A stretch of DNA of 64,000 nt from a virus (lineage: Duplodnaviria; Heunggongvirae; Uroviricota; Caudoviricetes): the IMG/VR virus record IMGVR_UViG_3300017989_000052; one strand, 5' to 3'. The notes under the pieces were generated by a model that did no database searches, was not told the origin of the DNA, and saw only the letters and a program-made list of their open reading frames with translations. The position numbers and the translations under genes are program-made. Below are positions 1,423-59,990 of the stretch, one piece after another; position 1 is the first letter of the stretch, and every line of letters begins with the position of its first letter.

Positions 1423-1624
1423 AGAAATCGTTGTAACTTTAGCAGAGCAGAAAAATAGATGGGTTGGGGGTATTGTTCTTATTGGAACCCCGGACTCGGA
1501 GAATGAGTATCTTCTATTTTTACATGAGGATGGCGAGTTTTACCCCGATAGGCCTAACGCGAAAGTTTTTAGGTCTGCTAAAAAAGCCTGGTATGCTGTT
1601 GCCAAGGAACTTGAGAATAGATAA
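1412..1624 (+). CDS. hypothetical protein
   Basis: 70 aa, overlaps neighbours in coupled fashion. Confidence 0.5.
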   Translation: MATEEIVVTLAEQKNRWVGGIVLIGTPDSENEYLLFLHEDGEFYPDRPNAKVFRSAKKAWYAVAKELENR

Positions 1625-2043
1625 TGTTTGCATCGTCCCAAAAAACTCTTAGGCTAACACAAAGTTTCCCCTTTAAAACGAAAATTATTGCCCAACTTTG
1701 GGGCCATTCTTATAATAATTTAGTTTATGAGCAACCCCTGAATAAGATTCCTTATCGAAAGGACTTAGCCCCTCTTATTCTTGCTATTTTGGAAGTTTAT
1801 AAATCCTCCAAGGACTTGGAAAAGCTAGTTAACATAGAATTAAAAACTTCCGTTCTCCTACAAGCCGAAATTATACTTGACTATGGGGTTGATTCAGAGT
1901 ACTATACCTTAAATATAGTAAAAATAAAAGAAGAAGAGGTTCTCCCGCTTCCCCGGATAGAAAATTACTTAACAAATAAACTTCCCATTTTTCGTCGGGT
2001 AGCAAAACAAGTTATTAAAAAGAGGGATAGCGAGTATAGTTAG
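1624..2043 (+). CDS. hypothetical protein with C-terminal LT[H/S]-x4-R tag
   Basis: C-terminal YLTNKLPIFRRVAK. Confidence 0.6.
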   Translation: MFASSQKTLRLTQSFPFKTKIIAQLWGHSYNNLVYEQPLNKIPYRKDLAPLILAILEVYKSSKDLEKLVNIELKTSVLLQAEIILDYGVDSEYYTLNIVKIKEEEVLPLPRIENYLTNKLPIFRRVAKQVIKKRDSEYS

Positions 2044-2108
2044 ACGTTACCTAAAGAAAAAGAATATTCTTTTTCGAAATTTCGTAAAAGGATTATAGTG
2101 AAGCTCTA

Positions 2109-2474
2109 ATGTTTGAACAGTATATCACACACAAAGATCCTAAAATTAGGGGGCTGGTAAAAAAGGTTAACCGTCTTTTAGAAAAAGGGGAATTCAAGCA
2201 TGCGGCTGGTTTCGTCCAAAAAGAGCGAGAGGAGCTTTCAAGAATGATTAAGGCCCCCGTGAGGCCCATAACAACTAACGCCCAGTATAGGGCTGAAATT
2301 GAATTAGATAAAAGGATCGAAGAGTATCAAAGTATTATCTACCCACTTGAATTAGCAGTTACAAAAAAATATTATCGAAGTTTAAGAGAAAGACGAGAAA
2401 AAACACATCGAAAGTTATTGTGGTTATACGTTGCAGTTATTGTAGCCTACATGCTATTACAAATTTTTGGATAA
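2109..2474 (+). CDS. membrane-anchored protein with N-terminal tag (paralog of 27111..27527)
   Basis: N-terminal YITHKDPKIRGLVK; C-terminal hydrophobic helix LLWLYVAVIVAYMLL. Confidence 0.65.
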   Translation: MFEQYITHKDPKIRGLVKKVNRLLEKGEFKHAAGFVQKEREELSRMIKAPVRPITTNAQYRAEIELDKRIEEYQSIIYPLELAVTKKYYRSLRERREKTHRKLLWLYVAVIVAYMLLQIFG

Positions 2475-2658
2475 GGAGAAACTAATGCTAGTAACAAAAT
2501 GGACAGAAACTAAGGAAGAATGGCTTGTGTTATCTGGGTCTCTAGAAGAAACGGGGGAACTCGCTTCTCAATATTTCGACGCCGGCGCTAAAATTCAGGG
2601 GGAAGAAACGGAAATGCCCGAAAACGAGTTTAGGGCTCTTTCAGAATTTGGAGGATAA
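2467..2658 (+). CDS. hypothetical protein
   Basis: 63 aa coupled ORF. Confidence 0.5.
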   Translation: MDKEKLMLVTKWTETKEEWLVLSGSLEETGELASQYFDAGAKIQGEETEMPENEFRALSEFGG

Positions 2659-2661
2659 AAA

Positions 2662-2907
2662 ATGCCAGACAGCGGAAAAACCCTAGCCGAAGCAACCCGA
2701 GAGGAGTTAATGGAAGAACTTGTTCAAAGATGCCAGTCGATTGTTATGGCGGCGGTGTGGAGAGACCCAGACGAGCTTTCAAAAGAGGAGATTACGAGAA
2801 AGCGAATTTGTATGGGGAATGGGCTAGAATGTCTCGGGTTGGTCCGTCTCCTAGATGACTATGCCTTAAAACTCTATTATGGAACAAGTAAACGCTATGA
2901 CAACTGA
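2662..2907 (+). CDS. hypothetical protein
   Basis: 81 aa; GGA upstream of the start. Confidence 0.55.
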   Translation: MPDSGKTLAEATREELMEELVQRCQSIVMAAVWRDPDELSKEEITRKRICMGNGLECLGLVRLLDDYALKLYYGTSKRYDN

Positions 2908-3394: not shown

Positions 3395-3414
3395 TTCCTC
3401 TACATAATAATTTG

Positions 3415-3442: not shown

Positions 3443-3450
3443 GGTGTTCT

Positions 3451-4392: not shown

Positions 4393-4395
4393 TCC

Positions 4396-5559: not shown

Positions 5560-5901
5560 ATGTTCAATAATAAGGATCCACGATGGAGTTCAATGATACC
5601 GGAACCTGGTATCTATGATATAACAGAGGGGCACCACGTTTTTATTAGGTATAGCGGGCAATCCCCGATATTTGTTTTTATAAAAACAAAAGCCTTAGAA
5701 CAATTCAAACAAGGGGAACCCGCTGTTAGTCTATTATTTGTAACACCAAGCAGATATTCAGAAATGTTTTGTAACTTAGGGGCAGCAGGAACGATTTTCC
5801 ATGTTATTATAGAGGAGAAGTTTAATTCTAAGTCAGTAAGCCCCACTCAATTTCTCACGCATCCTTCCCCACAGATTCGGCAAGCTGCGAAAGACTTCTA
5901 A
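5560..5901 (+). CDS. hypothetical protein with C-terminal tag
   Basis: C-terminal FLTHPSPQIRQAAK. Confidence 0.65.
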   Translation: MFNNKDPRWSSMIPEPGIYDITEGHHVFIRYSGQSPIFVFIKTKALEQFKQGEPAVSLLFVTPSRYSEMFCNLGAAGTIFHVIIEEKFNSKSVSPTQFLTHPSPQIRQAAKDF

Positions 5902-5902: not shown

Positions 5903-6250
5903 ATGTTTGAAAAACCTCCATACTGTGTTATTTTTAACTCTATTGAAATATATAAGCAGGAAATTTATTGGCTCCCAGATAAGCCAGACGACTTAACTAT
6001 TAAATCGCTTGTTATTTCTTATCTCCATAAATATGAAAAATCTTTAGTGAATCAGGTGTTGAAGATTCAGATTAAAGAACCCTCGTCGACGAATTGGAGA
6101 AAAGAAATTCTTGTCTTTCTCCGGCATGCTACGATGCATATTCAATTCATTGAAGGTTTCCCTCAACTTGATTTTCCTTGTATGGAAGAAATGCTAACAC
6201 ACGAAAATGCTTATATTCGTAAAATAGCAAAAATGAAACTTGAGGAATAG
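5903..6250 (+). CDS. hypothetical protein with C-terminal tag
   Basis: C-terminal MLTHENAYIRKIAK. Confidence 0.65.
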   Translation: MFEKPPYCVIFNSIEIYKQEIYWLPDKPDDLTIKSLVISYLHKYEKSLVNQVLKIQIKEPSSTNWRKEILVFLRHATMHIQFIEGFPQLDFPCMEEMLTHENAYIRKIAKMKLEE

Positions 6251-6252: not shown

Positions 6253-6546
6253 ATGTTTGAGAAGAAACTTTTCGAAGTCCAGTTAACAAAGCAGGTTTAT
6301 CTTTATTTCGAAGATAATGTTTTGCATATTATCACCCCTAATGGGTATCGAAAAGTTCCCAGGATAAGTAGGGTTTATGTTTACTGGGAAGGTGCATTAC
6401 AAAAGCATTTCACCCTAAATTATTCTGTTGCATCAATGGTAGAACAGCCTCTCTCAATTCTTCTCACACACCCAGATCCTGGAGCGCGAGATTGGGCAAA
6501 AGAAAAGCTTAGAGTTGCGCTAATTTCACAAAATAATAATTTTTAG
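6253..6546 (+). CDS. hypothetical protein with C-terminal tag
   Basis: LLTHPDPGARDWAK near the C-terminus. Confidence 0.65.
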   Translation: MFEKKLFEVQLTKQVYLYFEDNVLHIITPNGYRKVPRISRVYVYWEGALQKHFTLNYSVASMVEQPLSILLTHPDPGARDWAKEKLRVALISQNNNF

Positions 6547-8539: not shown

Positions 8540-9034
8540 ATGTTGGAACGCAAAATACCAGCAATTAAATATCTGGGGCTTTTTCTTTCCTATGGTTTGG
8601 TTGCTTGGGTTATTATCTTTTGCTCGATACAGCTCGCACAAATAAGTGCCTGGTTTCTTTTCTTCTGGTTAGCTCTGTTTTTGCTCGGGTTTTTCGTTGC
8701 AAGATTAGCAGAATCTATCAAAAATTTTGGGGAGCTGGAACATCGACGGATTTATATTGTAGAACGAGAAGACGCTTTGGGAAAAGTTAACGTCCTTATT
8801 TGTTTTTGCACCCTTTTCAAAATAAAGATTTACGCGAGCGAGTATTTTTGTAAGAAAAATAGCAATATCAAAGCCGGAGAAATTATAACGGTATCCAGAC
8901 TTAATCCTAAAACCTATCAGGCAATTGATTTTATACACCTTTATTACTACAAAGTAGGGGTAACCGAGCTACTAACGTATCCTTACCCAAGCGCAAGGAA
9001 ATTTGCGAAACTAGTTCTAAACAAGAAAATATGA
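8540..9034 (+). CDS. two-TM membrane protein with C-terminal tag
   Basis: Two N-terminal hydrophobic helices; C-terminal LLTYPYPSARKFAK. Confidence 0.65.
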   Translation: MLERKIPAIKYLGLFLSYGLVAWVIIFCSIQLAQISAWFLFFWLALFLLGFFVARLAESIKNFGELEHRRIYIVEREDALGKVNVLICFCTLFKIKIYASEYFCKKNSNIKAGEIITVSRLNPKTYQAIDFIHLYYYKVGVTELLTYPYPSARKFAKLVLNKKI

Positions 9035-10377: not shown

Positions 10378-10430
10378 TTAAAACTTAACGGATGCAAACA
10401 AAGGGCTGCGAAAACTCGCAAAAGAAATTT

Positions 10431-10789: not shown

Positions 10790-11314
10790 ATGAAGGCAAT
10801 ATCACTTTTCAAGACGATTGGCGCGGCAAGTCAGCAGGGCGAATTACACTGGGCTTGGAATGTTTTCACAAAGGACAAAATAACAGAAGATTTTGTTCGG
10901 AAGATATTACTCGACTATCTTATTTATATTGAAGAAGGCAACCTTAGAACAGACATTGATACCGACAATCCTATCTATTTGACAAAGGTATCTGCTTTTA
11001 GAAATTATAACCTTTTTAAGGTTCTCGGGATTAAGAAACAGAAGCTTTGTTATTCGAAAAACTTTTTTTATGAAAAACTTATTCCAGAGGTTAAACGCCA
11101 ATGGAAATTGTTAGGCTTTCTCCCGACCGGATTTTATCCGATTATTTATCACAGAAGACCGAGTATAAAGGATAGCGTTCGACTCGGGGCTAAACTTTTT
11201 GTTACATCAGAGTTAAAAGAAACCCACACAAAAAAACCAAGCATGCAATTTCTCACCCATAAACATAAGGTAATAAGGGACATCACAAAATGCTTAGAAA
11301 ACTCGTCTTTATAA
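10790..11314 (+). CDS. hypothetical protein with C-terminal tag
   Basis: FLTHKHKVIRDITK near the C-terminus. Confidence 0.6.
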   Translation: MKAISLFKTIGAASQQGELHWAWNVFTKDKITEDFVRKILLDYLIYIEEGNLRTDIDTDNPIYLTKVSAFRNYNLFKVLGIKKQKLCYSKNFFYEKLIPEVKRQWKLLGFLPTGFYPIIYHRRPSIKDSVRLGAKLFVTSELKETHTKKPSMQFLTHKHKVIRDITKCLENSSL

Positions 11315-11656: not shown

Positions 11657-12031
11657 ATGGATTATCCAATTCGACATGTCGAATTCCTGAGAAGCAAGAC
11701 TAGGCTTGTTGTGCGGGTCACAGCCGATTTTTATCTTGATTTAGACCAACCGGATGAGTTTGTAAGACAGACGATTTACTTTTCAGAAAAATTTGTACCA
11801 GGGACGCCATATAAATACCCGATTGAAAATAAGTATGTTATTTTTGGAAAATCTGTTCTCTGTCCCTCTTCCCGGGGCCTTGAAGAGGTTGAAGCCGCAG
11901 AACTACTAACTCACGATTCTCCAGAAGTGAGAAAAGCTATAAAACTATACCTTAGCTCTTCCCTAAGAGAATTTGAAGAATTTTGCATGCGGCTGAATTG
12001 TGAAAATATAACATCGGAGGCGTGCCCTTGA
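11657..12031 (+). CDS. hypothetical protein with tag near C-terminus
   Basis: LLTHDSPEVRKAIK. Confidence 0.65.
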   Translation: MDYPIRHVEFLRSKTRLVVRVTADFYLDLDQPDEFVRQTIYFSEKFVPGTPYKYPIENKYVIFGKSVLCPSSRGLEEVEAAELLTHDSPEVRKAIKLYLSSSLREFEEFCMRLNCENITSEACP

Positions 12032-13543: not shown

Positions 13544-13577
13544 TTTAAATATAGCTGGTTTAACCTTGGAGGAAAAA

Positions 13578-16430: not shown

Positions 16431-16682
16431 ATGAAAATTCCAATTGAGAAGCAGCATAGATTATTTAAAAATGTAGGCTCTATCCCATATCTCTATTTTT
16501 CAAAATCCAGAGTCTATTCAATTGGAAAATCAGAACATGCTACCATATATCCGGCAAGGACGGCAACGGAGTACAAGGTAATGAAGGCCGAAGAAGAAGT
16601 CCCCCTAACTACTCTATTAACTCATCCAAGCCCAAAAATAAGGAAGTGGGCGAAGAGGGTCACTAACCAAAAAACCTCTTAG
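16431..16682 (+). CDS. hypothetical protein with C-terminal tag
   Basis: LLTHPSPKIRKWAK. Confidence 0.65.
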   Translation: MKIPIEKQHRLFKNVGSIPYLYFSKSRVYSIGKSEHATIYPARTATEYKVMKAEEEVPLTTLLTHPSPKIRKWAKRVTNQKTS

Positions 16683-17281: not shown

Positions 17282-17656
17282 ATGTTTGAACCATATACAT
17301 TAGTGAAAATAAAGTTTATCCCTTCCTCCCCATACTCGGTTCAAAGAAAAGAAGAAGAGGAAATCGCCTTTGGAATTTTTAAAAGAATAGCGTACGGAAA
17401 ACACCGTAAAAGTAAAATGTCAAAAATGTATTTTGAAGTTGACACTATTATCCCTACCGAAAACTGTTGGAATTTTGGGGACTCCCCAGAATTTCTTGAC
17501 GATGCCCACCTTTCCCTTTCTAACTGTGACTTCGAGCAGCTTTCTTTTGACGCCGCTCCCGATTTTATTAAAGAACTTTTACTCTCCCCTACTGCACTAA
17601 CACATAAATGCTCGGGTATTAGAGTTTTGGCGAGAAGATTGCAAAATGCTATCTAG
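17282..17656 (+). CDS. hypothetical protein with C-terminal tag
   Basis: ALTHKCSGIRVLAR. Confidence 0.6.
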   Translation: MFEPYTLVKIKFIPSSPYSVQRKEEEEIAFGIFKRIAYGKHRKSKMSKMYFEVDTIIPTENCWNFGDSPEFLDDAHLSLSNCDFEQLSFDAAPDFIKELLLSPTALTHKCSGIRVLARRLQNAI

Positions 17657-18044
17657 ATTTCAAAGAAGAAAGGGAAATAGCGCCTGGTATAACTATATCC
17701 GGTTTAAGTCCTACCTTGCCATTCCTATCTTCCCAATACTATTAATATTAACTGGAATTTTTGTTCTTGTAACTTTTAGTTGTTTATACTTGGGTCGGCT
17801 ATACGAAAAAGTTAGGGGGTGTAATTGTTCTGGAAGTTGGTTTTTCTCATGGCCGTCACACAAGGATTATAACTACAACAACAAATGTCCTTACCATTAC
17901 GGGGTACTCCGAGCGAAAGAAGAGTTCGAGATATCTCTGGGGGAGGGGACAGACCCACGGGCCCTATTAACATCCCAAAATAAGTATATACGTAAATATG
18001 CTAAAAGGCACTTAAAGAAATGCGCACGTCAATCAGTGAAATAA
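17646..18044 (+). CDS. membrane protein with CxC...CPYH motif and C-terminal tag
   Basis: TM helix, GCNC...CPYH, LLTSQNKYIRKYAK. Confidence 0.65.
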   Translation: MLSRFQRRKGNSAWYNYIRFKSYLAIPIFPILLILTGIFVLVTFSCLYLGRLYEKVRGCNCSGSWFFSWPSHKDYNYNNKCPYHYGVLRAKEEFEISLGEGTDPRALLTSQNKYIRKYAKRHLKKCARQSVK

Positions 18045-18370
18045 TTGGGTTTGCTATTTCGGTTATCCTTTCTGGCCTTTTTCCACAATATATTCTGGTC
18101 ATTATCCCCCTTGTGTTTGGTTCAATGATTCTTTATCAAAAATCCCACGGCTGTACTTGCTTTTCTTGGAATGCCTCCCTACCTGACCGGCGGGATATCC
18201 CATGTCCTTATCATAGCCAGCTCTACGCAAAGGAAGAGGTTAAGAATGCAGCAAAATCAGGGAGGGGTGCCATTACTTCTCTCCTAACATCCAAGAATAA
18301 GTATTTCAGGTCTGCCGCAAGAGAGTTTCTTAAGAAACACCCCTTAACCAAAGGAAAAGACAATGAGTGA
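18020..18370 (+). CDS. membrane protein with CxC...CPYH motif and C-terminal tag
   Basis: TM helices, GCTC...CPYH, LLTSKNKYFRSAAR. Confidence 0.65.
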   Translation: MRTSISEIIGFAISVILSGLFPQYILVIIPLVFGSMILYQKSHGCTCFSWNASLPDRRDIPCPYHSQLYAKEEVKNAAKSGRGAITSLLTSKNKYFRSAAREFLKKHPLTKGKDNE

Positions 18371-24350: not shown

Positions 24351-24731
24351 ATGGTTGAAGTGGGTACAAAAGAATCAGAAATATATCTACTCATAATTGA
24401 ATCTCGCGAGTTCCCTCTACAGTATACGATTCCTTTAGGGCACTATCCGTCTGAGGAAGACATTAAAATATTAATTATGTCCTCTTCGGAAATGTTCACC
24501 GATGACCTTATCCTAGATATGGAATTTAGTTTTCAACCTACTAGATCGGGGATCTTGGTTTTAACATATAATAGTTCCCCCACTCTTGGGGAACTTCAGA
24601 ATCTTTATGATTTTTATCTCAAGAAAGAAGTAATTAGAAATTCTCCTTCCTTGGAGGCACTTCTCACACATAAACAGGCATTTATAAGAGAATACGCAAA
24701 GAAAAAGTGCCAAAAGGAATTAAATGTTTAG
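24351..24731 (+). CDS. hypothetical protein with C-terminal tag
   Basis: LLTHKQAFIREYAK. Confidence 0.65.
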   Translation: MVEVGTKESEIYLLIIESREFPLQYTIPLGHYPSEEDIKILIMSSSEMFTDDLILDMEFSFQPTRSGILVLTYNSSPTLGELQNLYDFYLKKEVIRNSPSLEALLTHKQAFIREYAKKKCQKELNV

Positions 24732-25122
24732 ATTAATTATAGAGGGAGTCCCCTCCCAAATAACTTTTGAAGAATTCCCAGAACATGCGGAGTTGCTCCC
24801 ATACCTGATCTCTTATTTAGAAGAGCAATATTCTGTTAAAAATTGTGATGCAATTAATTTTTGCAAAATAATTTTAACGCGAGATTGTTATTCTGGATGC
24901 TTAGTATTAGTTTGGAAAGATGAAGTTTGCTGGGTTGCAGGAGCATTTGACAAGGAAGAGGACGTACCTTACGAATTGGTAGATACATCAGAGGAGAAGA
25001 ACGAGCCTAAGTATATAGTTGGGGTAGAATTTCAGCCCTTAACTATGTATCTAACACATGAAGCCGAAGCAATAAGAAAACTAGCGAAAAAAGTTTTGGA
25101 AAGACCGGAGATTGCCCAATGA
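24724..25122 (+). CDS. hypothetical protein with C-terminal tag
   Basis: YLTHEAEAIRKLAK. Confidence 0.65.
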   Translation: MFRLIIEGVPSQITFEEFPEHAELLPYLISYLEEQYSVKNCDAINFCKIILTRDCYSGCLVLVWKDEVCWVAGAFDKEEDVPYELVDTSEEKNEPKYIVGVEFQPLTMYLTHEAEAIRKLAKKVLERPEIAQ

Positions 25123-26225: not shown

Positions 26226-26612
26226 ATGGATCTCTCGGGCATAAAAAGGTTAGAGCCCCTGCTAACTTCCCCTTGCTCATTTTTACGGGAGTTAGCAAAG
26301 GCTCTCAAGGCCCTAAAAGAAAAATTTGAAATTGCTCTTGATTTCCTTGAGCGGGGTTTGATTTCACCGGACTATGCATATCTTCGGTTAAAAATTATCC
26401 TTAAGCACAAAGAAAAAAAATATGAAACGCTTGTATATTTAGATACTATGACCCATTACTTAGGGAAGTCTAGCTGCTTTGCTATAGCCGATCCCCTATT
26501 AAAACATACATATGATTTTGTTTCTATTTCTTATATGAGGGCAACACTCAATTTTAGGCTTCGTAAATATGAAAAGTCCTTGGACCATAAAAAGCACAAA
26601 GTTAGTTTATAA
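26226..26612 (+). CDS. hypothetical protein with N-terminal tag
   Basis: LLTSPCSFLRELAK at residues ~12-25. Confidence 0.6.
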   Translation: MDLSGIKRLEPLLTSPCSFLRELAKALKALKEKFEIALDFLERGLISPDYAYLRLKIILKHKEKKYETLVYLDTMTHYLGKSSCFAIADPLLKHTYDFVSISYMRATLNFRLRKYEKSLDHKKHKVSL

Positions 26613-27110: not shown

Positions 27111-27527
27111 ATGTTAACTGAATATTTAACCCATTCCGACCCAGAGATAAGGATTAGCGTAAAAGCAGTAATAAGTCTTAACGAACTTAAGGAATTTAAT
27201 GAAGCTGATAAACTTTTAGAAATGCTAATTACCCATTCCATTAATTCTTATAAGACTATTTTAGATCCGAATTTAGGAATATATACTGATGAAATCCCCC
27301 CAGAACAATATTATGAACGTTACCAAGTCCTTGTTCAGATTCGAATAAAAACGGCTTTAGAAAAAATAAAGTACCTCAAAAATCAAGAAAAGGCTAAAGA
27401 AGAAAAGGCTAAAGAAGAAATTGTAGAGTATGAAGAAAAAAGAAGAAAGGCCCAAGAGCTTTTTGAGCAGAATATTAAGTGGCTAATTCTTGGGGCTTCT
27501 ATAATAATTGCTGCTCTTTTAATTTAG
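27111..27527 (+). CDS. membrane-anchored protein with N-terminal tag (paralog of 2109..2474)
   Basis: MLTEYLTHSDPEIRISVK; C-terminal WLILGASIIIAALLI. Confidence 0.65.
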   Translation: MLTEYLTHSDPEIRISVKAVISLNELKEFNEADKLLEMLITHSINSYKTILDPNLGIYTDEIPPEQYYERYQVLVQIRIKTALEKIKYLKNQEKAKEEKAKEEIVEYEEKRRKAQELFEQNIKWLILGASIIIAALLI

Positions 27528-28436: not shown

Positions 28437-28873
28437 TGCACCCTTACCACCAACCTAAACTTCTTTCAACGGTTTTCTTTGAATTTCAAAAATGGGTTCC
28501 CCTTTATGGGTTGGATTTCTTTTTTCCTCCATGCCTCTCTTTTTTTAAAGGAAGTTCGGATAAAACAGTCATCTTTCGGGTTGCTTGGCCCTTCTGTTTA
28601 GAATTTGATGTTGAAAACGAAATCGTCGGCCTCTATGGAAGATTTCAAATAGACACCCCTGTCTTAACTTTTTCTTCTTTCCTTAGCCTTGGTTTCTTCT
28701 TAAATTCCCCCAAAGCTTTTGTACAATATATTGTAATTGAACTCTATAACTTTTTTTGTGATGCCGCGACTTTGACACATTCTGATAAGCATGTTCGCGA
28801 TTGTTGTAAAAAATTTCGGGAAAGAATAAAGGAAGAAGATGTATCCAACTTACAGTGGTTTGCCAATCTTTAA
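28436..28873 (+). CDS. hypothetical protein with tag near C-terminus
   Basis: TLTHSDKHVRDCCK. Confidence 0.55.
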   Translation: MHPYHQPKLLSTVFFEFQKWVPLYGLDFFFPPCLSFFKGSSDKTVIFRVAWPFCLEFDVENEIVGLYGRFQIDTPVLTFSSFLSLGFFLNSPKAFVQYIVIELYNFFCDAATLTHSDKHVRDCCKKFRERIKEEDVSNLQWFANL

Positions 28874-29036: not shown

Positions 29037-29451
29037 AGCTCACCTTAGACTTTGCTTAGTCCTTGGAAATCCCCTTTATTTCAGCTTTCTCTGTTTGAGT
29101 AATGTTTCTCTTTTCATAAAAATCCCTATCTTAATTATAGGTTCGATTATCCCCCTTATAACATTATTATGCCTAGTAATGTTTGTTGTTTCTTTTTTCA
29201 GTATGGTTTGGGCAACTAGAAAAGGGTGTACCTGCTCTTGGGAGCTTGTTACTATGGAATTTAGTTATTCGAATTCTAGAGTAAAAACTTCTATTTTAGG
29301 AGTAACAACTATCATAGATTGCCCATACCATAGGGAAACACATGAAAAGGCGATTGTTAAAGCGTACGTTAAAAGGGAAAAGAAGGACCTTAAGTCCCTT
29401 CTCACTCATAAAAATGTGAGGGTAAGGCTTGCTGCAAAGAAATTACAATAA
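29023..29451 (+). CDS. membrane protein with CxC...CPYH motif and C-terminal tag
   Basis: TM helices, GCTC...CPYH, LLTHKNVRVRLAAK. Confidence 0.65.
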   Translation: MLENEAHLRLCLVLGNPLYFSFLCLSNVSLFIKIPILIIGSIIPLITLLCLVMFVVSFFSMVWATRKGCTCSWELVTMEFSYSNSRVKTSILGVTTIIDCPYHRETHEKAIVKAYVKREKKDLKSLLTHKNVRVRLAAKKLQ

Positions 29452-29454: not shown

Positions 29455-29796
29455 ATGTTTGAACATAAAAAAACTATCTATAAGGCAACCCAAATTTTTG
29501 GGGATAAGAGCGAAGACGTATTAGGATACATTATCACCTATAAAAATGAAGATGAGTGGGAAATCGCTTATTTTGATACAGCTGTGGCAAAAGAAGAAAC
29601 ATCCTTGGAGGAGAAGCATAACATCCTATGGTTACAAGGTATAAAAGATTTTTACGAAAAAGGCGAAGATAAAGAACCCTTCTTTAAGGATTCAAAATAT
29701 AGATATGACGAGAGGTCCCTCACAGAATTCTTAACACACTCAAACACAAAATTAAGAGCCTTTGCAAAAAAATATAATGTTTATCCTGAAAATTAA
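29455..29796 (+). CDS. hypothetical protein with C-terminal tag
   Basis: FLTHSNTKLRAFAK. Confidence 0.65.
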   Translation: MFEHKKTIYKATQIFGDKSEDVLGYIITYKNEDEWEIAYFDTAVAKEETSLEEKHNILWLQGIKDFYEKGEDKEPFFKDSKYRYDERSLTEFLTHSNTKLRAFAKKYNVYPEN

Positions 29797-32083: not shown

Positions 32084-32557
32084 ATGGAAAAACATTATAC
32101 TTTAATCGCAGACACGTCTCAGGCAGGCTTTTGGGGCACCTCTCCAACTTATAAATGCCAAATTAAAAGGAAACCTCGCTTTACCGATTTGAAATTGTTT
32201 GGCTATCTTATAGCCAAAGACCTGGTAGCTAGATTTATCCTGGGCTCAATATCATATCCGAGGGTTGCTAAAGTCCAAGGGGATGTAAATAGCGGCTGGT
32301 TTGACGAATGTTATTCGTTTTTTGATTTTGATCGTTTTTTCGAGGATTGCCTAGCATGTGGAAGTACGCTAGTAATTGAAATTTCTGGCTTCAGAATCCC
32401 TATAAAAACTGAAATTGAATTTATTCTAAAATCCTTTAACATTTCTCAAGACCTTACCCACAAGAACGCCAATATTCGCAAAACTGCAAAAGAAATCCAA
32501 AAGGATGTTACGGAAGCGTCGTTTTACTTTACCCCTTTCCCAGAGACAACGCCATGA
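32084..32557 (+). CDS. hypothetical protein with tag near C-terminus
   Basis: DLTHKNANIRKTAK. Confidence 0.6.
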   Translation: MEKHYTLIADTSQAGFWGTSPTYKCQIKRKPRFTDLKLFGYLIAKDLVARFILGSISYPRVAKVQGDVNSGWFDECYSFFDFDRFFEDCLACGSTLVIEISGFRIPIKTEIEFILKSFNISQDLTHKNANIRKTAKEIQKDVTEASFYFTPFPETTP

Positions 32558-35913: not shown

Positions 35914-36575
35914 TGTCGAACTATAATTACGTAGTACCCAAGTGCGGAGAACTCCCTCCCCAAGAAGAGCTTAATGCTTTAATTAGGAAGATAGTTATAA
36001 GTCGGTTGCCCTGCTGGGGTCTTTCTACCGTTAAGGACTTAAATCGTTTCTTCGCTTGCTACAGCATCCAACATAAAACTTGGGAAACCGATCCCGAAGG
36101 GATAATTCTTTTCTGGGAAGACTCCTACCGCACTCCCGAATTTGAGGGTAGCAAGTTTAACTATCTTAAACATATTGTGGGGAAAAGAGTCCCATGCCTT
36201 GTTTTTGATCGGGGACCTGTAAGCCCATTCACCCGATTCATTAATAATGAAATACGGAAAAGGGTATGCCTTGAAATTGAAGCGTTTGATGTAGCAGACA
36301 CAGTTGATCTCTATCCCATAGAAAAGGAATTTAAGTTCTACGAAACCTTCTGGGACCAAGAAAAAACATATATTAGTAGCGAAAACCCACTCGAGATCAG
36401 TGGTCCCCTAATGAATAAATTGACCTGGGTATTAGAATCAATCGGAGAAGCACCCCAGGACATTTATAATCTTTTAGGGTTGCCCGATGGTATTCTTTAT
36501 CCTTTTCTGACCTCGGCAAGCCAAGAAGCAAGGAAAGCAGCAAAGAAAGCCCTAGAAAAAAGTGAAAATCCGTAA
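35913..36575 (+). CDS. hypothetical protein with C-terminal tag
   Basis: FLTSASQEARKAAK. Confidence 0.6.
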   Translation: MSNYNYVVPKCGELPPQEELNALIRKIVISRLPCWGLSTVKDLNRFFACYSIQHKTWETDPEGIILFWEDSYRTPEFEGSKFNYLKHIVGKRVPCLVFDRGPVSPFTRFINNEIRKRVCLEIEAFDVADTVDLYPIEKEFKFYETFWDQEKTYISSENPLEISGPLMNKLTWVLESIGEAPQDIYNLLGLPDGILYPFLTSASQEARKAAKKALEKSENP

Positions 36576-38135: not shown

Positions 38136-38468
38136 ATGCCACTCGTTAGGATTGAAACTCTACTCACACACAAAAACCAAGCGGTGCGAAACTTGACCCA
38201 GAAGCTACTAAAGTTAACTCTAGATAATGAAGCATTGGTAGAAGAAACGTATTATAGTGACAAGTATCCTCTGGTCACTTTTTTCTGTATAAAAGATCCT
38301 CTCTTCAGCTATAGCATTCGCTTCATGCGCCATGCTCTGTATCTAGAGATCTTTGATCATAATAGGTACACACGCCCTAAAGGTTTCAAGGGGATCGGCG
38401 TAAAACTTAACGAAGGCGAAAAGATTATAGAAGCTCTTCTGGGCTTCACTCCGGTTGAAAGAAAATGA
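38136..38468 (+). CDS. hypothetical protein with N-terminal tag
   Basis: ETLLTHKNQAVRNLTQ. Confidence 0.6.
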   Translation: MPLVRIETLLTHKNQAVRNLTQKLLKLTLDNEALVEETYYSDKYPLVTFFCIKDPLFSYSIRFMRHALYLEIFDHNRYTRPKGFKGIGVKLNEGEKIIEALLGFTPVERK

Positions 38469-38908
38469 AGTATTCAGTAAACTATCTCAAGAATCGTTTT
38501 AGCCAAGGCGAATTTATAATAATTTATACGGATCACTTCTCTTCTCGGCTTTTTTATGGGATTCTTGAAGGGATAAATCGAAAAGGGAAACGGCTTGGTT
38601 TTACGAAGTTTGAAAGAAACGGGGGAAATCTTAAAATCCGCATCGATTACCTTTTAATTGAGAAGATTAGGTTAATCGTATCAGCAGAGAAGCCAGAAGG
38701 GAGACATAAACAGGAGATTAAGGCTTTGGAAGACCTTTATAAAGAACTTCCTAGCCTTCTCACTTCACCTAGAATACCTACCCGAACCCTGGCTAAAAGG
38801 TGTAGAGTTTTACGAAAGATCTTTCAAGGGGAAGACTATGAAAAAGAAAAAGCAGCCCTGACAAATACGCTAAAGAAATACGATAATCTATTTTTTAAAA
38901 GGGTATAG
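38465..38908 (+). CDS. hypothetical protein with tag near C-terminus
   Basis: LLTSPRIPTRTLAK. Confidence 0.6.
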   Translation: MKYSVNYLKNRFSQGEFIIIYTDHFSSRLFYGILEGINRKGKRLGFTKFERNGGNLKIRIDYLLIEKIRLIVSAEKPEGRHKQEIKALEDLYKELPSLLTSPRIPTRTLAKRCRVLRKIFQGEDYEKEKAALTNTLKKYDNLFFKRV

Positions 38909-44579: not shown

Positions 44580-45176
44580 ATGATGACCCAACCTTTTAAA
44601 GCACTAAGCCCATTCTTTTTTCGGCTAGAACTACATCTTTGCCTGGAAGTCCCAGGAGAAAAAATATGGAAAAAACGATTTATTGACCTTGTAGAAGGCG
44701 ATAATGATATTGTGCCAAAGGTCCTCTATTTTAGGGCAGAGCGAAATGTTCTAACAGAAGAGGATCTTAAGGTCATTGTTGCCCACGAATTTTACCATAA
44801 CCCTTATCATGAGTTCGGGGAGGATAAAAGGAAACTTAAAGTTAATGAAATTGATTTTATTGACTGTAGGGCTATTACTTGGAGCAAAAATACATATGGA
44901 GAAAAACAAGTATTAGAATACCCTAATCTTGGATATATCCAAATGAAATTGCGGAGAGACTTTTTGTATTCGGTCTCTCAGGTGCCATATACAACAGCGG
45001 GGACCATGACAACATTTCAGTTTGAAATTGAACAAATTAAGATTTACGAAGCCCCTCCAAAGTTAGAAACGTTTTTAACAACGCAGGATAAAGTAACGAG
45101 GGAATGGGCAAAAAGAGAGAAAGAATTTAAGGCGAGAAAAGAGGAAGAAGCAGACTCACGTCGAGGGAGATTTTAA
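44580..45176 (+). CDS. hypothetical protein with tag near C-terminus
   Basis: FLTTQDKVTREWAK. Confidence 0.6.
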   Translation: MMTQPFKALSPFFFRLELHLCLEVPGEKIWKKRFIDLVEGDNDIVPKVLYFRAERNVLTEEDLKVIVAHEFYHNPYHEFGEDKRKLKVNEIDFIDCRAITWSKNTYGEKQVLEYPNLGYIQMKLRRDFLYSVSQVPYTTAGTMTTFQFEIEQIKIYEAPPKLETFLTTQDKVTREWAKREKEFKARKEEEADSRRGRF

Positions 45177-48971: not shown

Positions 48972-49248
48972 AAGAACCCTTTTTGGGGAAAAGGCCCTCC
49001 AAAGCTTTCTTTTTTACGCAACCGATGAAACCCTTTTATATATCCAAATTGGGGAGGCTACTATTATCTCTAATGTAAGAGGGGGTATTAAAGATTTTTG
49101 GATAGGGCAGATCGAAACTAAACATGGTCTTTCAGAAATTGAAGAGATAAAACCAGAGACCTTGTTGACTAGCGAAAACCTAAGAGTTCGTAAGTATATA
49201 AAAGAAGTCTTAGAAAAAGGCGTTTTCACTTTTATAGAGGAAACCTAG
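48886..49248 (+). CDS. hypothetical protein with C-terminal tag
   Basis: LLTSENLRVRKYIK; start uncertain. Confidence 0.55.
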   Translation: MKRPKRKILKEENKMKKKCVAVKDGSFFRRTLFGEKALQSFLFYATDETLLYIQIGEATIISNVRGGIKDFWIGQIETKHGLSEIEEIKPETLLTSENLRVRKYIKEVLEKGVFTFIEET

Positions 49249-52392: not shown

Positions 52393-52849
52393 AGGGGAAC
52401 AAGTTGAAATCGAAGATCCCCAAAAAGGGAACTTGAGTAGATTCCTAACATCTCAAAACCCAAAGGTACGAAACCATGTTGCTGCGATGCTTGGGTTAAA
52501 GATCTCAGGTATCGTGTATAAACAATTAGAATTTTATGTTGAGGAGATTCACGATCTTGAAAAGAAAAAGAAAAGAACTAGAACTTCCTTTAGAATAACT
52601 TTAATTAAGGAGGAGATTAAACTAAAAATTCTATTTACCGAAACCGGGGCGGAGACAGAAGTTTTTTTCTACTACCTTTTTGCTAAGGAATCGTTACCTT
52701 ATATTGAACAAGCTAGTTCTCTGAAACTGCTTCTCCCAAAAATTAAAAGCATTTTCGATAAAGAAATCGATATTGCTGCCCTCAAACAAAAGATTACCAA
52801 AAGGCTTCTAAAAGAGGTGAACAATGCTAGGACGTCAAGACAGGCTTAA
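52376..52849 (+). CDS. hypothetical protein with N-terminal tag
   Basis: FLTSQNPKVRNHVA. Confidence 0.6.
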   Translation: MKRITRGEQVEIEDPQKGNLSRFLTSQNPKVRNHVAAMLGLKISGIVYKQLEFYVEEIHDLEKKKKRTRTSFRITLIKEEIKLKILFTETGAETEVFFYYLFAKESLPYIEQASSLKLLLPKIKSIFDKEIDIAALKQKITKRLLKEVNNARTSRQA

Positions 52850-55173: not shown

Positions 55174-55629
55174 ATGAATAGGCACCTCTTAAAATATCTG
55201 ACCTGTAACAGCCCTCTTTTAAGAAATTGGGTTAAAGAGAGAATTTATAGGGAAGATATTAGATTTGAAGTTATTGAAGGGGATATCGAATATGTCCCCG
55301 AAGAGACTCAATACGTTCGTGGAGAAATTGATATTACTGGTAGAAGACTTAAAAAGATAGATAGAAAAGTAATTTTTTGTGAGTTCCTGTTTTGTTGGAA
55401 TAACCAATTGTCTGAGCTTCCGGAATTACCTGTTTGTAGGTTATTAATTTGTTCAAGCAACCGACTGACTCGACTTCCGGAATTGCCTGTTTGTGAAAGC
55501 TTGATTTGCCACCATAATCAATTAGCATCCCTTCCTCGGCTGCCCGTTTGTACACATTTGGATTGTTCAGATAATAGGTTACCTGCTGGGTTATCCTTTT
55601 CAAAAAATGAAAACAATTTATCGCGTTAG
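55174..55629 (+). CDS. leucine-rich-repeat protein with N-terminal tag
   Basis: YLTCNSPLLRNWVK, then NNQLSELPELP / SNRLTRLPELP / HNQLASLPRLP repeats. Confidence 0.8.
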   Translation: MNRHLLKYLTCNSPLLRNWVKERIYREDIRFEVIEGDIEYVPEETQYVRGEIDITGRRLKKIDRKVIFCEFLFCWNNQLSELPELPVCRLLICSSNRLTRLPELPVCESLICHHNQLASLPRLPVCTHLDCSDNRLPAGLSFSKNENNLSR

Positions 55630-56002
55630 TCTGTACCAAGAACTGGATTTTAAGGCTAGGGAAACTTTCTTGTTTGAATGTTTGCCCGACCTTGATGAAC
55701 TATTACTATTCCTCCTTGATTTCATTTCCAAGTCTTTCTTCTACAAAGCCGAATTTTTACAGCTTATTCGGTACAAAAAAGAATTTCACAGCTTGTCTGG
55801 GGTTGGACAAATCGAGATGGAAGTTTGGGTGGACCCTTTGGAAAAAGAAAAGAAACCTTGGCGTTGTTTAATCCGGGCTTCAATCTCAGAAGTATCTTTC
55901 ACCCCCCTGGAAAGAAAAGAAACCTATTTAACTAACAAAAATTCAGAAGTAAGGTCATTAGCAAAAAACCTAAGTCAAAAGGCAGACCGCGATGAGGGAT
56001 AA
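55607..56002 (+). CDS. hypothetical protein with C-terminal tag
   Basis: YLTNKNSEVRSLAK. Confidence 0.6.
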   Translation: MKTIYRVSLYQELDFKARETFLFECLPDLDELLLFLLDFISKSFFYKAEFLQLIRYKKEFHSLSGVGQIEMEVWVDPLEKEKKPWRCLIRASISEVSFTPLERKETYLTNKNSEVRSLAKNLSQKADRDEG

Positions 56003-56396
56003 ACATATAAATGCTTTACCGAATGGGCAATTCGAGCTTGCAGATGAATACGTTATCAACTTCGAAGCGGAAACCCATGCTTCGTATAAAAGGTTATCTC
56101 GTTGCCAACTTTATTTTGTTATCTTCGTTTTTATAAACCTCATGCTTGCATTAGTTTCCTATCTATTCGGTATCTTCTGGCTTGTTATGAGCACAATTAC
56201 TTTATGTGTTTTCGAAAAAAAGGAGCGGGGACTTAAAAAAAGAAATGCAGACCGATTAAGAATGTTTGGGGATTCAGATTACGCCCTAACCCAAGCTTTA
56301 CCTTCCCTCGGCTTAAAGTATAAAGAAGTAACAAAATCTTTATTAACGCATCCTAGTAAAGAAGTTAGAAAAACAGCAAAGAAAGTTTTAAGTTAA
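55992..56396 (+). CDS. two-TM protein with C-terminal tag
   Basis: Central hydrophobic helices; LLTHPSKEVRKTAK. Confidence 0.65.
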   Translation: MRDKHINALPNGQFELADEYVINFEAETHASYKRLSRCQLYFVIFVFINLMLALVSYLFGIFWLVMSTITLCVFEKKERGLKKRNADRLRMFGDSDYALTQALPSLGLKYKEVTKSLLTHPSKEVRKTAKKVLS

Positions 56397-56976: not shown

Positions 56977-57499
56977 GTTAAACGATTACTTTAAGAGCCT
57001 TCAACCCAAGGACATTGATTATTCCTTTGGAAAATTAGAACTAAGGGGGAAAGGCTTTGAAATTCCTTTCGATAATAATTTTCGAAACCACCTTGGCCCC
57101 CAGGCCAAAGAACGGGTATATGCTCTTGAACTTGTTTTCCCAGATTTTAAGTGGGAACGGGTATATGTGATAATCGAAACAAACAAAAAGAAATTTAACT
57201 GGAAAAAGCTTCGCGAAGATTCCCGAACATATTATAAATACGTTATAGTAGGGCAAACAAAACAGGGAGAGACCCTTCAATACGAAAAAACTAATCCATA
57301 TTTTAGGCTTCTTAAAAATGGGGAGAGGGAAGCTAAGGATAAAACCTTTCTTTTAGTTCTCCCTGCCATAGAGGCTATTCGCCAAATTAAGGAGTTTGGC
57401 CATAAAAAAACAAAACTAAAACGTTGGCTAACCTCCAATAACAGATATCTTCGAATATTGGCTAAAAAGAAATTAGAAGGGGTTTGGCATGGAATCTGA
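56969..57499 (+). CDS. hypothetical protein with C-terminal tag
   Basis: WLTSNNRYLRILAK. Confidence 0.6.
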   Translation: MDKLNDYFKSLQPKDIDYSFGKLELRGKGFEIPFDNNFRNHLGPQAKERVYALELVFPDFKWERVYVIIETNKKKFNWKKLREDSRTYYKYVIVGQTKQGETLQYEKTNPYFRLLKNGEREAKDKTFLLVLPAIEAIRQIKEFGHKKTKLKRWLTSNNRYLRILAKKKLEGVWHGI

Positions 57500-57821
57500 A
57501 TTAGCCCAACATCTCACCTCAGCCTGCCCACTTATACGGAAACTAGCGAAAAATGCGTCTCAAATAGATGGAATCAAGCATCTTTGTCTTGAAAATTATG
57601 CTTGTCGAATCCTATACCTTTTTGAGTATAAAGGGTATGAGTTCGAAACTTGGTATTTTGATCCTGCCGTTTATGGACGCTTTTCTTATTTGTACGAATT
57701 TAGACTTCGAAAAGCTGGTTCTCCCATTTCGGTGAGAACCGAAAAGACTAACGATAGTTCTAAAATGCTGAACGCTATCCTCCAGGCTATAGAATTTGTT
57801 AAGGAGAATCTAAGTGCCTAA
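57489..57821 (+). CDS. hypothetical protein with N-terminal tag
   Basis: HLTSACPLIRKLAK. Confidence 0.6.
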   Translation: MESELAQHLTSACPLIRKLAKNASQIDGIKHLCLENYACRILYLFEYKGYEFETWYFDPAVYGRFSYLYEFRLRKAGSPISVRTEKTNDSSKMLNAILQAIEFVKENLSA

Positions 57822-58143
57822 AGAAATTATTCACATTATTTATAGCTGTAGTCAATGCCCCTATCTATTATCAAATCTTGAAGAGTTTGAATCCCAAGCA
57901 CATATAAAAGTTAATTTCAGTTGTAAACTGACATCTAAATATTTAGCATCCCAGCTAGTTTTAGTGAAGCAGAAAGAAGGGGTTCCCAGTATCGAACCCG
58001 CAGGAGACCTTACAAATGGAACTCATCCCTCATGCCCCCTTCCAGACCATACTCCAGAACGAACCACAGAGAAAATAAGACTTTCGGCTGCTCCTACAGA
58101 AGCAGCCTTGGATATACCGAAGAGAAAAAATGAAAACAGTTGA
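57814..58143 (+). CDS. hypothetical Cys-containing protein
   Basis: CSQCPY...C...CPL; GTG start with AAGGAG. Confidence 0.55.
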   Translation: MPKEIIHIIYSCSQCPYLLSNLEEFESQAHIKVNFSCKLTSKYLASQLVLVKQKEGVPSIEPAGDLTNGTHPSCPLPDHTPERTTEKIRLSAAPTEAALDIPKRKNENS

Positions 58144-58534
58144 CTTTTATTTAGTCCCTTTAACCCACAAAGGACCAAATTCAAAGTATTTCCCAGAAAC
58201 AAGGGTTTTGCATCCTGCCATTAGGGTAGACGACGCAATCTACGATCTTATTACTTTTAATTGGGGAAACCACGGTACGTCCGTAATTTCAGATGGGCTT
58301 CGTAAACTTCCCTCAAGGGAACCAGCTGATAGTCCGCTTTGGGATAGATATAAAGTTCCACCTTCTGTTTTTTTAACGAGTATTAGCCAATTTGCAAGAC
58401 ACCTAGCAAAGTCTTATTTAGCAGGAGATATTGACTGGGTTAGGATAGCAATTGAAATTGCTTATAGGGAACTAGGTAGGGAAATGGAATACTTTTTTCA
58501 AAAACTTCATGATAAAGGGGGATGCCTTCCATGA
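58130..58534 (+). CDS. hypothetical protein with tag near C-terminus
   Basis: FLTSISQFARHLAK. Confidence 0.6.
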   Translation: MKTVDFYLVPLTHKGPNSKYFPETRVLHPAIRVDDAIYDLITFNWGNHGTSVISDGLRKLPSREPADSPLWDRYKVPPSVFLTSISQFARHLAKSYLAGDIDWVRIAIEIAYRELGREMEYFFQKLHDKGGCLP

Positions 58535-59049
58535 TAAAGAAAAATTTACCGGTCTTAGCGTATCTAATTTTAGCAGCAACTGCGAACATTGTAACAACCA
58601 GAGGGTTTGAGCTTATCGGTCCCTACATCATGCCTATTGTGGCATTTATTTTCATTGGGGTTGATATAACTTTGCGGGATAAAATTCACGAACGGTGGGC
58701 CCGCAAAGGTCTCTGGTGGAAGATGGGATTTTTAATTTGTGGCGGTTCCTTGCTTTCTTGGGTCACCTACCCAGAAGCAGGTCAGGTAGCCTTAGCATCG
58801 GCCTTGGCATTTTGTGGTGCTGGAATTGTGGATACTTTTATCTACCATATAGTAAGAAAGAAATCCAGAAGAGCTGCAATTCATACAAGTAATGTTGGTT
58901 CTGCAGCAATTGATTCACTTATCTTTCCCTTTGTTGCCTTTGGAATTTTAGCCCTTCCGATTATTGCGATGCAATTCGCGGCGAAGGTAGCAGGGGGCTC
59001 AATCTTTGAAGTTGTTTGGCATAGGGTAACTAAGGATTCTTCAAAATGA
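58531..59049 (+). CDS. VUT-family (YhhQ-like, queuosine precursor) transporter
   Basis: ANIV, FIGVDITLRDKIHE, ALASALAF..AGIVDTFIY, SNVGSAAIDSLIF. Confidence 0.75.
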   Translation: MIKKNLPVLAYLILAATANIVTTRGFELIGPYIMPIVAFIFIGVDITLRDKIHERWARKGLWWKMGFLICGGSLLSWVTYPEAGQVALASALAFCGAGIVDTFIYHIVRKKSRRAAIHTSNVGSAAIDSLIFPFVAFGILALPIIAMQFAAKVAGGSIFEVVWHRVTKDSSK

Positions 59050-59519
59050 TAACCCTAGCTTCTCTTTTAACTATGGGGCGCGGCGAACATCTCTTTGCTA
59101 AAGAAATAATTCCCATTCTTGGAAAAAACTTCGAGGTTTTTGGGGTGGAAAAAAGGTCAAAGAGAAACTTTAGGGTTTATCTTACAAAATATTTTTGGGT
59201 TGATGTTTCCCCGCAAATTTACGTAGTTTGGAACCGCACTTTGCCCGAATTCCAATACTCTGTTATAACCTACAAGGAAGTTATATATAGGGTCAATAAC
59301 CCTTTTGAACCAGAATATTCCTTTATTCGGGGTTTAGATGAGGTATTACGCGAAATCAAAAATGAATTTAAGTCTAAGTTAAAACGATTTTGGCATTCCT
59401 TTCATTTTAACAGACACCTTAAAAACTCTCTTTTTAATCGGAACCTTAAAAACCCACCTTTCGCTTCTTCCGCCTTATCCCCTTCGTTAAAATTTCTTGT
59501 TGAAAATCAGAGGAAATAG
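59046..59519 (+). CDS. hypothetical protein, tandem paralog of 59550..59990
   Basis: LASLLTMGRGEHLFAK; shared IPILGK, YFWV, LPEFQY, KRFWH. Confidence 0.65.
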   Translation: MITLASLLTMGRGEHLFAKEIIPILGKNFEVFGVEKRSKRNFRVYLTKYFWVDVSPQIYVVWNRTLPEFQYSVITYKEVIYRVNNPFEPEYSFIRGLDEVLREIKNEFKSKLKRFWHSFHFNRHLKNSLFNRNLKNPPFASSALSPSLKFLVENQRK

Positions 59520-59549
59520 GTTTATACTAAAGCAAACCCAGAATATTCA

Positions 59550-59990
59550 ATGGCAATGAAATTAGCAACTTTGTTAACCATGAAACGGCCTGTCGCCCTT
59601 TTCGCAAAGAAGGTAATTCCAATTCTTGGAAAGGATTTCAAGCTTTTTGCGGTAGAGAAGAACGATGAATGTTCACAATTTATCATTTGTTTCACCGAGT
59701 ACTTTTGGGTTGAAATTTTCCCCCAATACTTGATATCCACCAACCCTAATTATATTCTACCGGAATATCAATATATTGTTAAGACTTATAAGGATATTAA
59801 GAATTATGGATATCTAAATTATTCATTGGTTAGAGACCTGGGTAGCGTGCTCCAGGAAATTAAAACAGAATTAAAACCAAAGCAAAAACGATTTTGGCAT
59901 TGTTTTCGTTTTCTCTTTTTTGTTAAAAATTCTGTAAGATGGAAATACGCCAGGGAAGACAAAGTTGTTCCAACTAAGCGAAACCCTTAA
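59550..59990 (+). CDS. hypothetical protein, tandem paralog of 59046..59519
   Basis: LATLLTMKRPVALFAK; same shared blocks. Confidence 0.65.
   Translation: MAMKLATLLTMKRPVALFAKKVIPILGKDFKLFAVEKNDECSQFIICFTEYFWVEIFPQYLISTNPNYILPEYQYIVKTYKDIKNYGYLNYSLVRDLGSVLQEIKTELKPKQKRFWHCFRFLFFVKNSVRWKYAREDKVVPTKRNP

Follow-up and report, generated by a model that had tools for sequence, protein, structure and literature searches.

Cellulosomal type I dockerins, duplicated F-hands of about 70 residues that bind calcium and are carried outside the cell by dozens to hundreds of proteins, pair with the cohesins of a common scaffold. Short terminal address peptides on diverse cargo are likewise found in the T4 capsid-targeting sequence (CTS) and in the cargo-loading peptides of encapsulins and microcompartments; encapsulation peptides can be N- or C-terminal amphipathic helices that follow a linker, and have one shell protein as their target. 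Constant helical modules also sit on variable binders, as in the PRANC and F-box-like ends of poxvirus ankyrin proteins and in F-box receptors with leucine-rich repeats (LRR), where they recruit one common machine, and the N-terminal markers MIX, FIX and RIX are shared by unrelated polymorphic effectors of type VI secretion. Here, we describe a motif of about 20 residues, hereafter the tag, in 64,000 nucleotides of DNA from a huge, uncultivated virus of the Caudoviricetes (IMG/VR record IMGVR_UViG_3300017989_000052; this whole stretch is referred to as the window). The tag is real, is under selection at the protein level, occurs once per protein and nearly always at a terminus, is independent of the body that carries it, and is kept in two lineages; its sequence register is that of a HEAT repeat.

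The logic of the tag is that of dockerins, a small and mostly C-terminal module on many unrelated proteins, but there is no sequence or fold relation between the two, and the tag is much smaller and cytoplasmic at least in two tail-anchored carriers. The T4 CTS lies at the N-terminus and is cut off at an L/I-x-E site, whereas the tag is C-terminal in 24 of 32 cases, no conserved Glu site of this kind flanks it, and its carriers are far more numerous and include membrane proteins. An LRR protein, encoded at 55174, is among the tagged proteins, as in the F-box-LRR receptors; bacteria are without SCF machinery. From the MIX, FIX and RIX markers the tag differs in its sequence, in its phage context, and in that no secretion apparatus is encoded nearby. 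The HEAT_2 and PBS-lyase repeats (PF13646, PF03130, PF02985), together with alphaRep and other designed scaffolds, have the same register, L-x-[D/H/S]-x-[D/N/S]-P-x-[V/I]-R-x-x-A-x-x-x-L, and in the HEAT consensus the Thr and Lys positions are variable. In contrast to these repeats, the tag is present as one unit per protein, never as an array, and on unrelated bodies. Our searches of the literature turned up no tag of this kind, and we know of no earlier case of one isolated HEAT repeat used as a transferable address.

The motif and its carriers

A first-pass annotation, made by a model from the letters and their open reading frames (ORFs), had claimed that about 35 small proteins of differing fold carry one motif, once each, that its conservation lies at the protein level, and that recognisable enzymes are free of it. 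All of these claims hold. A profile hidden Markov model (HMM) of 22 columns, trained on 24 copies, scored 27 plus-strand ORFs at 17-36 bits and five weaker ones at 7-12 bits, including a copy in ORF 3-197 that is additional to the first list, while the top score on the minus strand was 5.6 bits; leave-one-out scores were 7.9-32.7 bits. Four more copies, which the HMM misses, were seen by eye: two (1624 and 38465) are genuine variants in which the phi-7 residue is F or T, and two (59046 and 59550) are degenerate and without the Arg. The total in the window is about 34-36 (Table 1). The expression LT[HSDN]x4[IVLAM]R had 29 matches in the plus frames and none in the minus frames (matches within 6916 and 49674 are chance), and a DNA pattern for the tag had five matches with 0.00 expected. 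Across 50 within-protein shuffles, a mean of 0.02 matches reached at least 8 bits, as against 30 in the real set. These counts confirm that the motif is genuine and that it is present on about one third of the window's genes, whose bodies are otherwise unrelated.

The codons at the invariant residues vary, with six different ones for Leu, six for Arg and four for Thr. Since synonymous codons differ at these residues, the selection is at the protein level; the same variation, together with the lack of any minus-strand or out-of-frame enrichment, excludes a DNA-level element as the origin of the motif. The extended consensus reads phi(-4)-x-x-phi-L-T-[HS]-x-[NSD]-x-x-[IVL]-R-x-phi-A-K-x-phi-phi, in which Thr+1, His/Ser+2 and Lys+12 are near-invariant. 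The net charge of the tag ranges from +1 to +6, and its second helix, helix B, has basic residues at 8, 9, 12, 13 and 16 on one face and hydrophobic residues at 7, 10, 11, 14 and 15. Upstream of the tag, Pro and Gly are enriched at -4 to -6 (0.19-0.24 versus a background of 0.083), which fits a linker. Besides the C-terminal copies, seven are N-terminal and one is internal (58130), so that 31 of 32 are terminal, where uniform placement would make about 55% so. In its terminal position, its linker-like Pro/Gly and its amphipathic helix B, the tag resembles the encapsulation peptides. The HMM finds one tag per protein; a possible second unit, degenerate and 35 residues downstream, is seen in 27111 alone.

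When the tags were masked, all-versus-all BLASTP linked only 17646 with 18020 and 18020 with 29011, a subfamily with a transmembrane (TM) segment and a CxC..CPYH motif. None of 31 carriers matched a Pfam family at the gathering score, and none matched dockerin (PF00404), PRANC or F-box models at E <= 1. A match to PHROGs was found in only one carrier, with no family common to the carriers, and the 220-residue carrier encoded at 35913 has no homologue besides itself among 5.8 billion proteins. Searching 5.8 billion sequences with an alignment of the tag-aligned carriers returned only window proteins and one orthologue, in a search where single tags, at about 30 bits, cannot reach E <= 10. The tag is absent from all of the approximately 22 window proteins with a recognisable enzymatic or other Pfam domain.

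The carriers range from 64 to 220 residues, and their bodies are of several kinds. Those encoded at 2109 and 27111 are tail-anchored coiled coils, with the tag at the N-terminus and a TM segment at the very C-terminus, so that the tag must face the cytoplasm. Five others (8540, 17646, 18020, 29011 and 55992) have N-terminal TM segments and the tag at the C-terminal end, and the remaining bodies include an IpaH-style LRR protein (55174), acidic and basic soluble proteins, and one beta-rich model. The data fit a portable terminal module on unrelated bodies that is under selection of its own and is older than its present carriers.

A single HEAT-type repeat

Column statistics over 21-26 copies gave the register L-x-[D]-x-[DN]-P-x-[VI]-R-x-x-A-x-x-x-L, which is that of the HEAT helix-turn-helix. 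A cellular family of 225-256 residues from metagenomes (L043:5507-6196 (-), L047:609-1376 (+), L060:133-1152 (-) and about 12 more metagenome loci) matches Pfam HEAT_2 at 1e-15 to 1e-16, and its last unit coincides exactly with a match to the single-repeat HEAT model. This last repeat has the form FLTHP.[SA]WVR.EAKKA and reads ..FLTHPKSWVRREAKKAL...; the family is a possible evolutionary source of the phage tag. Comparing the tag profile with PDB sequences returned designed helical-repeat proteins, among them 4rzp, which has LLTHDD in each of its 42-residue repeats. The occurrence of LTH in cellular HEAT_2 proteins and in designed repeats places the Thr-His pair within natural HEAT variation. 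The first-pass annotation was thus right about the HEAT register, since the same LTH..VR..AKKAL unit is found in Pfam HEAT_2 proteins, but its setting of the Thr outside general HEAT variation is not supported, since LTH closes bona fide members of that family. Judged by its sequence, the tag is confirmed as a single HEAT-type repeat. What is unusual is that a lone HEAT unit is fused to unrelated bodies and that its Thr+1 and Lys+12 are held nearly constant.

The 31 carriers gave no match to the Pfam HEAT models (PF13646, PF03130, PF02985) even at E <= 1, because one unit is too short, and a tandem array of at least three repeats (a solenoid) was not seen in any carrier, each having one HMM match. 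In the AlphaFold2 model of the 83-residue carrier encoded at 16431, the tag forms a helix (59-63), a turn and a second helix (68-80) at a predicted local distance difference test score (pLDDT) of 61-72. This is the most confident segment of a model whose overall pLDDT is 56, so that only the secondary structure of the tag is usable; the model of the 58130 carrier (pLDDT 43) is too poor to use. A complex prediction with four tag-bearing C-terminal fragments (16431, 55992, 24351 and 5903) scored 0.10 against a mark of 0.34 and is evidence neither way. An Atlas feature search with the tag region returned HEAT_2 clusters at 0.86, which we treat as a lead only.

Occurrence beyond this genome

Sequence collections were scanned with [LF]LTHx4[IV]Rx2AKK back-translated to DNA, a pattern that matches 3 of 32 window tags. 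It gave two single matches on IMG/VR viral contigs and 33 in 185,579 species genomes, about the number expected by chance on a rough estimate, and neither collection yielded a multi-tag contig or tag array in these scans. The JGI metagenomes gave 82 loci, and rescanning them with the HMM revealed several short contigs with multiple tags.

One group of these contigs comes from this phage itself (L035 = L087) or from sister strains with 53-75% identity (L062, L092/L093 and P0007). L087 is another piece of the phage, with tail-fibre genes, and small genes there are also tagged. Orthologous carriers of the sister strains retain the tag, and in seven orthologue pairs the 20 residues of the tag are 64% identical and the remaining residues 50% (Fisher p = 0.002, with some dependence among the pairs). 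The gene at 28436-28873 has no matching sequence in the syntenic contig L062 while its neighbours are conserved, a sign that strains may differ by the gain or loss of individual carrier genes.

The second group (L057, L007, L038 and L059) comes from one metagenome and has no match to the examined sequences of this phage. An exhaustive search with an untagged 248-residue protein of L057 led to a 27.5-kb contig from three further runs (L127-L130). This contig has a GC content of 31.5%, is syntenic with L057 at 45-67% identity, and bears about ten tags on about 44 genes, mostly C-terminal and three of them N-terminal. On a more distant fragment, L133, the untagged protein is 26% identical to that of L057 and the neighbouring carrier keeps its tag. 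We refer to L057, L127-L130 and L133 as lineage B. With tags masked, lineage B has no similarity to the window or to L087 at BLASTP E below 0.03, and in a four-member carrier family from three of its contigs, the tag accounts for 8 of 19 invariant columns. On this sequence evidence, the tag is not confined to this genome, and a second, otherwise unrelated lineage uses the same tag, a finding new to this analysis.

Several other features of these contigs were recorded. The untagged 248-residue protein (L057:1188-1934 (-)) has a signal peptide and a repeated segment in common with giant proteins of 1412-2353 residues (P0008-P0012), in which up to 18 stretches match it. At L128:13434-17155, genes for isocitrate lyase, malate synthase and adenylosuccinate synthetase adjoin tagged orphans; in a phage, if lineage B is one, such auxiliary genes would be unusual. 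Finally, an identical 56-residue stop-to-stop piece with one LTH unit (LLTHPMSFVRSSAKK) is present once on each of four contigs, one from the candidate phyla radiation (L095, the contig LCAH01000001.1 of a Candidatus Uhrbacteria metagenome-assembled genome) and three from metagenomes (L020, L046 and L072, 84-179 kb), with no array on any of them.

Possible functions of the tag

We consider it quite possible, if just short of evenly probable, that the tag is a docking element that brings all of its carriers to one common partner. In such a scheme, a single HEAT-type repeat, made up of a short first helix (A), a T-[HS]-x-[NSD]-P turn and the basic, amphipathic helix B, would have become a portable terminal module, and the phage lineage would fuse it to either end of small accessory proteins, which form a large set that changes rapidly. 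The tag would most likely act in the cytoplasm of the infected cell, docking the carriers to the common partner, while the variable body of each would supply a specific activity or target. The mechanism we prefer is repeat complementation, in which the tag, resembling a C-terminal capping HEAT repeat, would stack on the exposed end or groove of a helical-repeat receptor by means of its conserved Arg, Thr/His and Lys. In its fullest form, this proposal would have a huge sediment phage clade run a dockerin-like intracellular system, where the one HEAT repeat of each rapidly evolving accessory protein completes or caps a single phage or host helical-repeat receptor, the resulting hub concentrates, delivers or switches the arsenal, and the tag has been kept while the carrier set turned over between lineages. 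We regard so complete a picture as possible, though on the unlikely side.

The first-pass annotation had likewise suggested a portable tag for one common partner. Portability is supported by the presence of the tag at either terminus and on unrelated bodies, by its being the most conserved block in orthologues, and by the second lineage; what we infer is that the tag has a binding partner at all, that this would be one protein, and the manner in which binding would take place. Several considerations weigh against docking as proposed. Pfam and PHROGs searches of the 64-kb window, 20 kb of the tail-fibre region and about 30 kb of lineage B (about 115 kb in total) gave no candidate for a multi-repeat HEAT or other helical-repeat receptor. 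L, R and A could be conserved for structural reasons only, serving the hairpin itself, and the AlphaFold2 monomer models are of low confidence, so that the tag may pack on the carrier's own body. The excess of conservation of tag over body is modest. Moreover, lineage B is taken to be a phage from its gene style only, its recognisable genes being confined to isocitrate lyase, malate synthase, adenylosuccinate synthetase and a cupin.

Among other explanations, the strictly terminal position of the tag at either end, the fact that the carriers are orphans without detectable homologues, and the SprT-like and M50 proteases encoded among them would suit a stability element, acting either as a degron or adaptor handle for timed turnover or as a cap that shields new orphans from host proteases that read protein termini. 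We think this unlikely, since known bacterial degrons are short and unstructured rather than helix-turn-helices of 20 residues, and our searches turned up no adaptor candidate; the invariance of the polar Thr, Arg and Lys speaks for specific recognition, with which an adaptor would be compatible too. Loading into the virion, an option already raised by the first-pass annotation, appears quite unlikely. Under this explanation, the tag would bind the procapsid interior, scaffold or portal, and the carriers would be packaged and injected with the DNA, as might be expected of a terminal peptide-like module at either end that is also found on small genes of the tail-fibre region; jumbo phages do package dozens of proteins, and ejection proteins can have hydrophobic segments. 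However, one third of the window's genes exceeds by far the sets known to be packaged, the carriers include two tail-anchored membrane proteins and several others with TM hairpins, no conserved L/I-x-E protease site lies beside the tag, and its mostly C-terminal placement is unlike that of the T4 CTS. The number of carriers and the two tail-anchored proteins thus weaken this option.

It is also conceivable, although we judge it very unlikely, that the tag is a basic amphipathic hairpin that binds DNA or RNA, as AlkD-type HEAT-like repeats do, or an anionic membrane, and concentrates the carriers on the nucleoid, the phage DNA or the membrane. Its net positive charge and the basic face of helix B agree with such a role, but TM-anchored carriers would need no membrane tag, nonspecific electrostatics would not require the Thr to be invariant and the His/Ser nearly so, and one hairpin provides little affinity. 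Tags might instead associate with one another, stacking or pairing as four-helix bundles and linking the carriers into an assembly or condensate. HEAT repeats are built to stack on HEAT repeats, and genes with a C-terminal tag sometimes directly precede genes with an N-terminal one (56969/57489 and 1624/2109); yet the outward face of helix B is polar, basic and cap-like, a surface that would disfavour open-ended stacking, and self-association of this kind seems clearly improbable. We reject, as the least probable of the explanations considered, the idea that the motif is an ordinary fold element, the best-conserved helix pair of one very divergent paralogous family. All carriers are small, and 17646, 18020 and 29011 are truly paralogous, but the motif changes ends between carriers, and the bodies differ from tail-anchored coiled coils and CxC..CPYH TM hairpins to LRR, beta-rich and acidic soluble proteins. 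Beyond the one subfamily, no pairwise similarity is left once the tags are masked, and lineage B has the tag on unrelated proteins.

In huge phages, the majority of genes are orphans that offer no handle for study. If one docking module is indeed common to a third of them, its hub could be found by way of the tag, and many proteins of unknown function would be organised into one system. With its 20 residues, the tag offers an easy marker by which accessory or effector genes can be found in related metagenomic phages, and the tag and its partner could be used as a small orthogonal docking pair.

Genomic context and positions of the tags

A 335-kb metagenomic contig, of which other versions reach up to 384 kb, matches the window at 99.99% identity over positions ~146.8-210.8 kb. 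The window's sequence is found in sediment and seawater metagenomes, and no RNA data set is listed for it. A megablast of phage records gave no match to the window, and IMG/VR held no relatives of the proteins encoded at 43339 or 34825. The window contains about 112 ORFs of at least 50 residues, 102 of them on the plus strand, and 11 tRNA genes. It encodes a PARP-like enzyme whose best matches are from jumbo phages (31-37% identity), a class II aminoacyl-tRNA synthetase, two ATP-dependent ligase-like and two PNK-like genes, Thg1, NAD kinase, NAPRTase, NAD synthase, Nudix enzymes and an ADP-ribosylglycohydrolase, as well as an anti-Pycsar-like metallo-beta-lactamase, SprT-like and M50 peptidases, and TnpB.

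Table 1. Positions of the tag and of tag-like variants in the window, with the ORFs that carry them
ORF	Tag	Strand	Placement and carrier	Score or basis
3-197	126..185	+	C-terminal; 5'-truncated ORF	HMM 12.2 bits
1624-2043	1957..2016	+	C-terminal; variant YLTN..FRRVAK, F at phi-7	by eye
2109-2474	2112..2171	+	N-terminal; tail-anchored (TM 103-121)	18.2 bits; TM prediction
5560-5901	5842..5898	+	C-terminal	28.6 bits
5903-6250	6182..6241	+	C-terminal	32.4 bits
6253-6546	6451..6510	+	C-terminal	29.1 bits
8540-9034	8960..9019	+	weak, LLTY..ARKFAK; N-terminal TM	8.9 bits
10790-11314	11240..11299	+	C-terminal; kept in orthologue P0007	27.5 bits
11657-12031	11894..11953	+	28 residues from end	25.5 bits
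16431-16682	16605..16664	+	C-terminal; top-scoring copy	35.9 bits
17282-17656	17585..17644	+	C-terminal	24.4 bits
17646-18044	17955..18014	+	C-terminal; TM + CxC..CPYH subfamily, related to 18020	29.0 bits
18020-18370	18272..18331	+	C-terminal; TM + CxC..CPYH subfamily	17.0 bits
24351-24731	24651..24710	+	C-terminal	30.3 bits
24724-25122	25039..25098	+	C-terminal; acidic body	29.7 bits
26226-26612	26250..26309	+	N-terminal	25.3 bits
27111-27527	27114..27173	+	N-terminal; tail-anchored (TM 120-138)	25.9 bits; TM prediction
28436-28873	28760..28819	+	gene without match in sister contig L062	27.1 bits
29011-29451	29389..29448	+	C-terminal; TM + CxC..CPYH subfamily; kept in L062 orthologue	25.0 bits
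29455-29796	29719..29778	+	C-terminal; kept in orthologues P0003 and P0004	28.3 bits
29762-30157	30080..30139	+	degenerate, YLTS.., without Arg	7.8 bits
32084-32557	32441..32500	+		27.8 bits
35913-36575	36495..36554	+	C-terminal; longest carrier, 220 residues	25.2 bits
38136-38468	38151..38210	+	N-terminal	28.0 bits
38465-38908	38747..38806	+	variant LLTS..TRTLAK, T at phi-7	by eye
44580-45176	45063..45122	+	weak, FLTT..TREWAK	11.1 bits
48886-49248	49153..49212	+	C-terminal	20.1 bits
52376-52849	52433..52492	+	N-terminal	23.9 bits
55174-55629	55186..55245	+	N-terminal; weak, YLTC..LRNWVK; LRR protein	7.1 bits; LRR_4 below cut-off
55607-56002	55916..55975	+	C-terminal	26.6 bits
55992-56396	56331..56390	+	C-terminal; hydrophobic hairpin 43-77	29.9 bits
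56969-57499	57416..57475	+	C-terminal	25.5 bits
57489-57821	57501..57560	+	N-terminal; begins 26 nt past end of C-terminal tag of 56969	26.8 bits
58130-58534	58361..58420	+	internal (residue 82 of 134)	23.6 bits
59046-59519	59055..59114	+	N-terminal; degenerate tag-like stretch LLTM.., without Arg; paralogue of 59550	by eye
59550-59990	59562..59621	+	N-terminal; degenerate tag-like stretch	by eye

The TnpB/OrfB gene (9079-10272 (-)) is of the IS605 type, full-length, and lies among tagged genes on the opposite strand. It has OrfB_IS605, Cas12f1-like TNB and helix-turn-helix domains and matches phrog_506 at 1e-115. About 100 nt from this insertion, at 10379-10465 (+, in the frame of 10379), there is a tag-like stretch, NLTDANKGLRKLAKEIYEG, which has no start, is out of frame, spans 29 codons between stops, and runs across the start of ORF 10392-10787. 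The stretch may be what is left of an N-terminal tag lost through a frameshift or through the TnpB insertion.

Four paralogous pairs were also noted in the window. The genes at 6916-7911 and 13566-14420 encode unknown proteins, those at 18363-19307 and 54308-55165 encode PNK-like kinase-phosphatases, and those at 46015-47928 and 50948-51925 (-) are ATP-dependent ligase-like. The fourth pair, at 59046-59519 and 59550-59990, encodes the two small proteins with a degenerate N-terminal tag.

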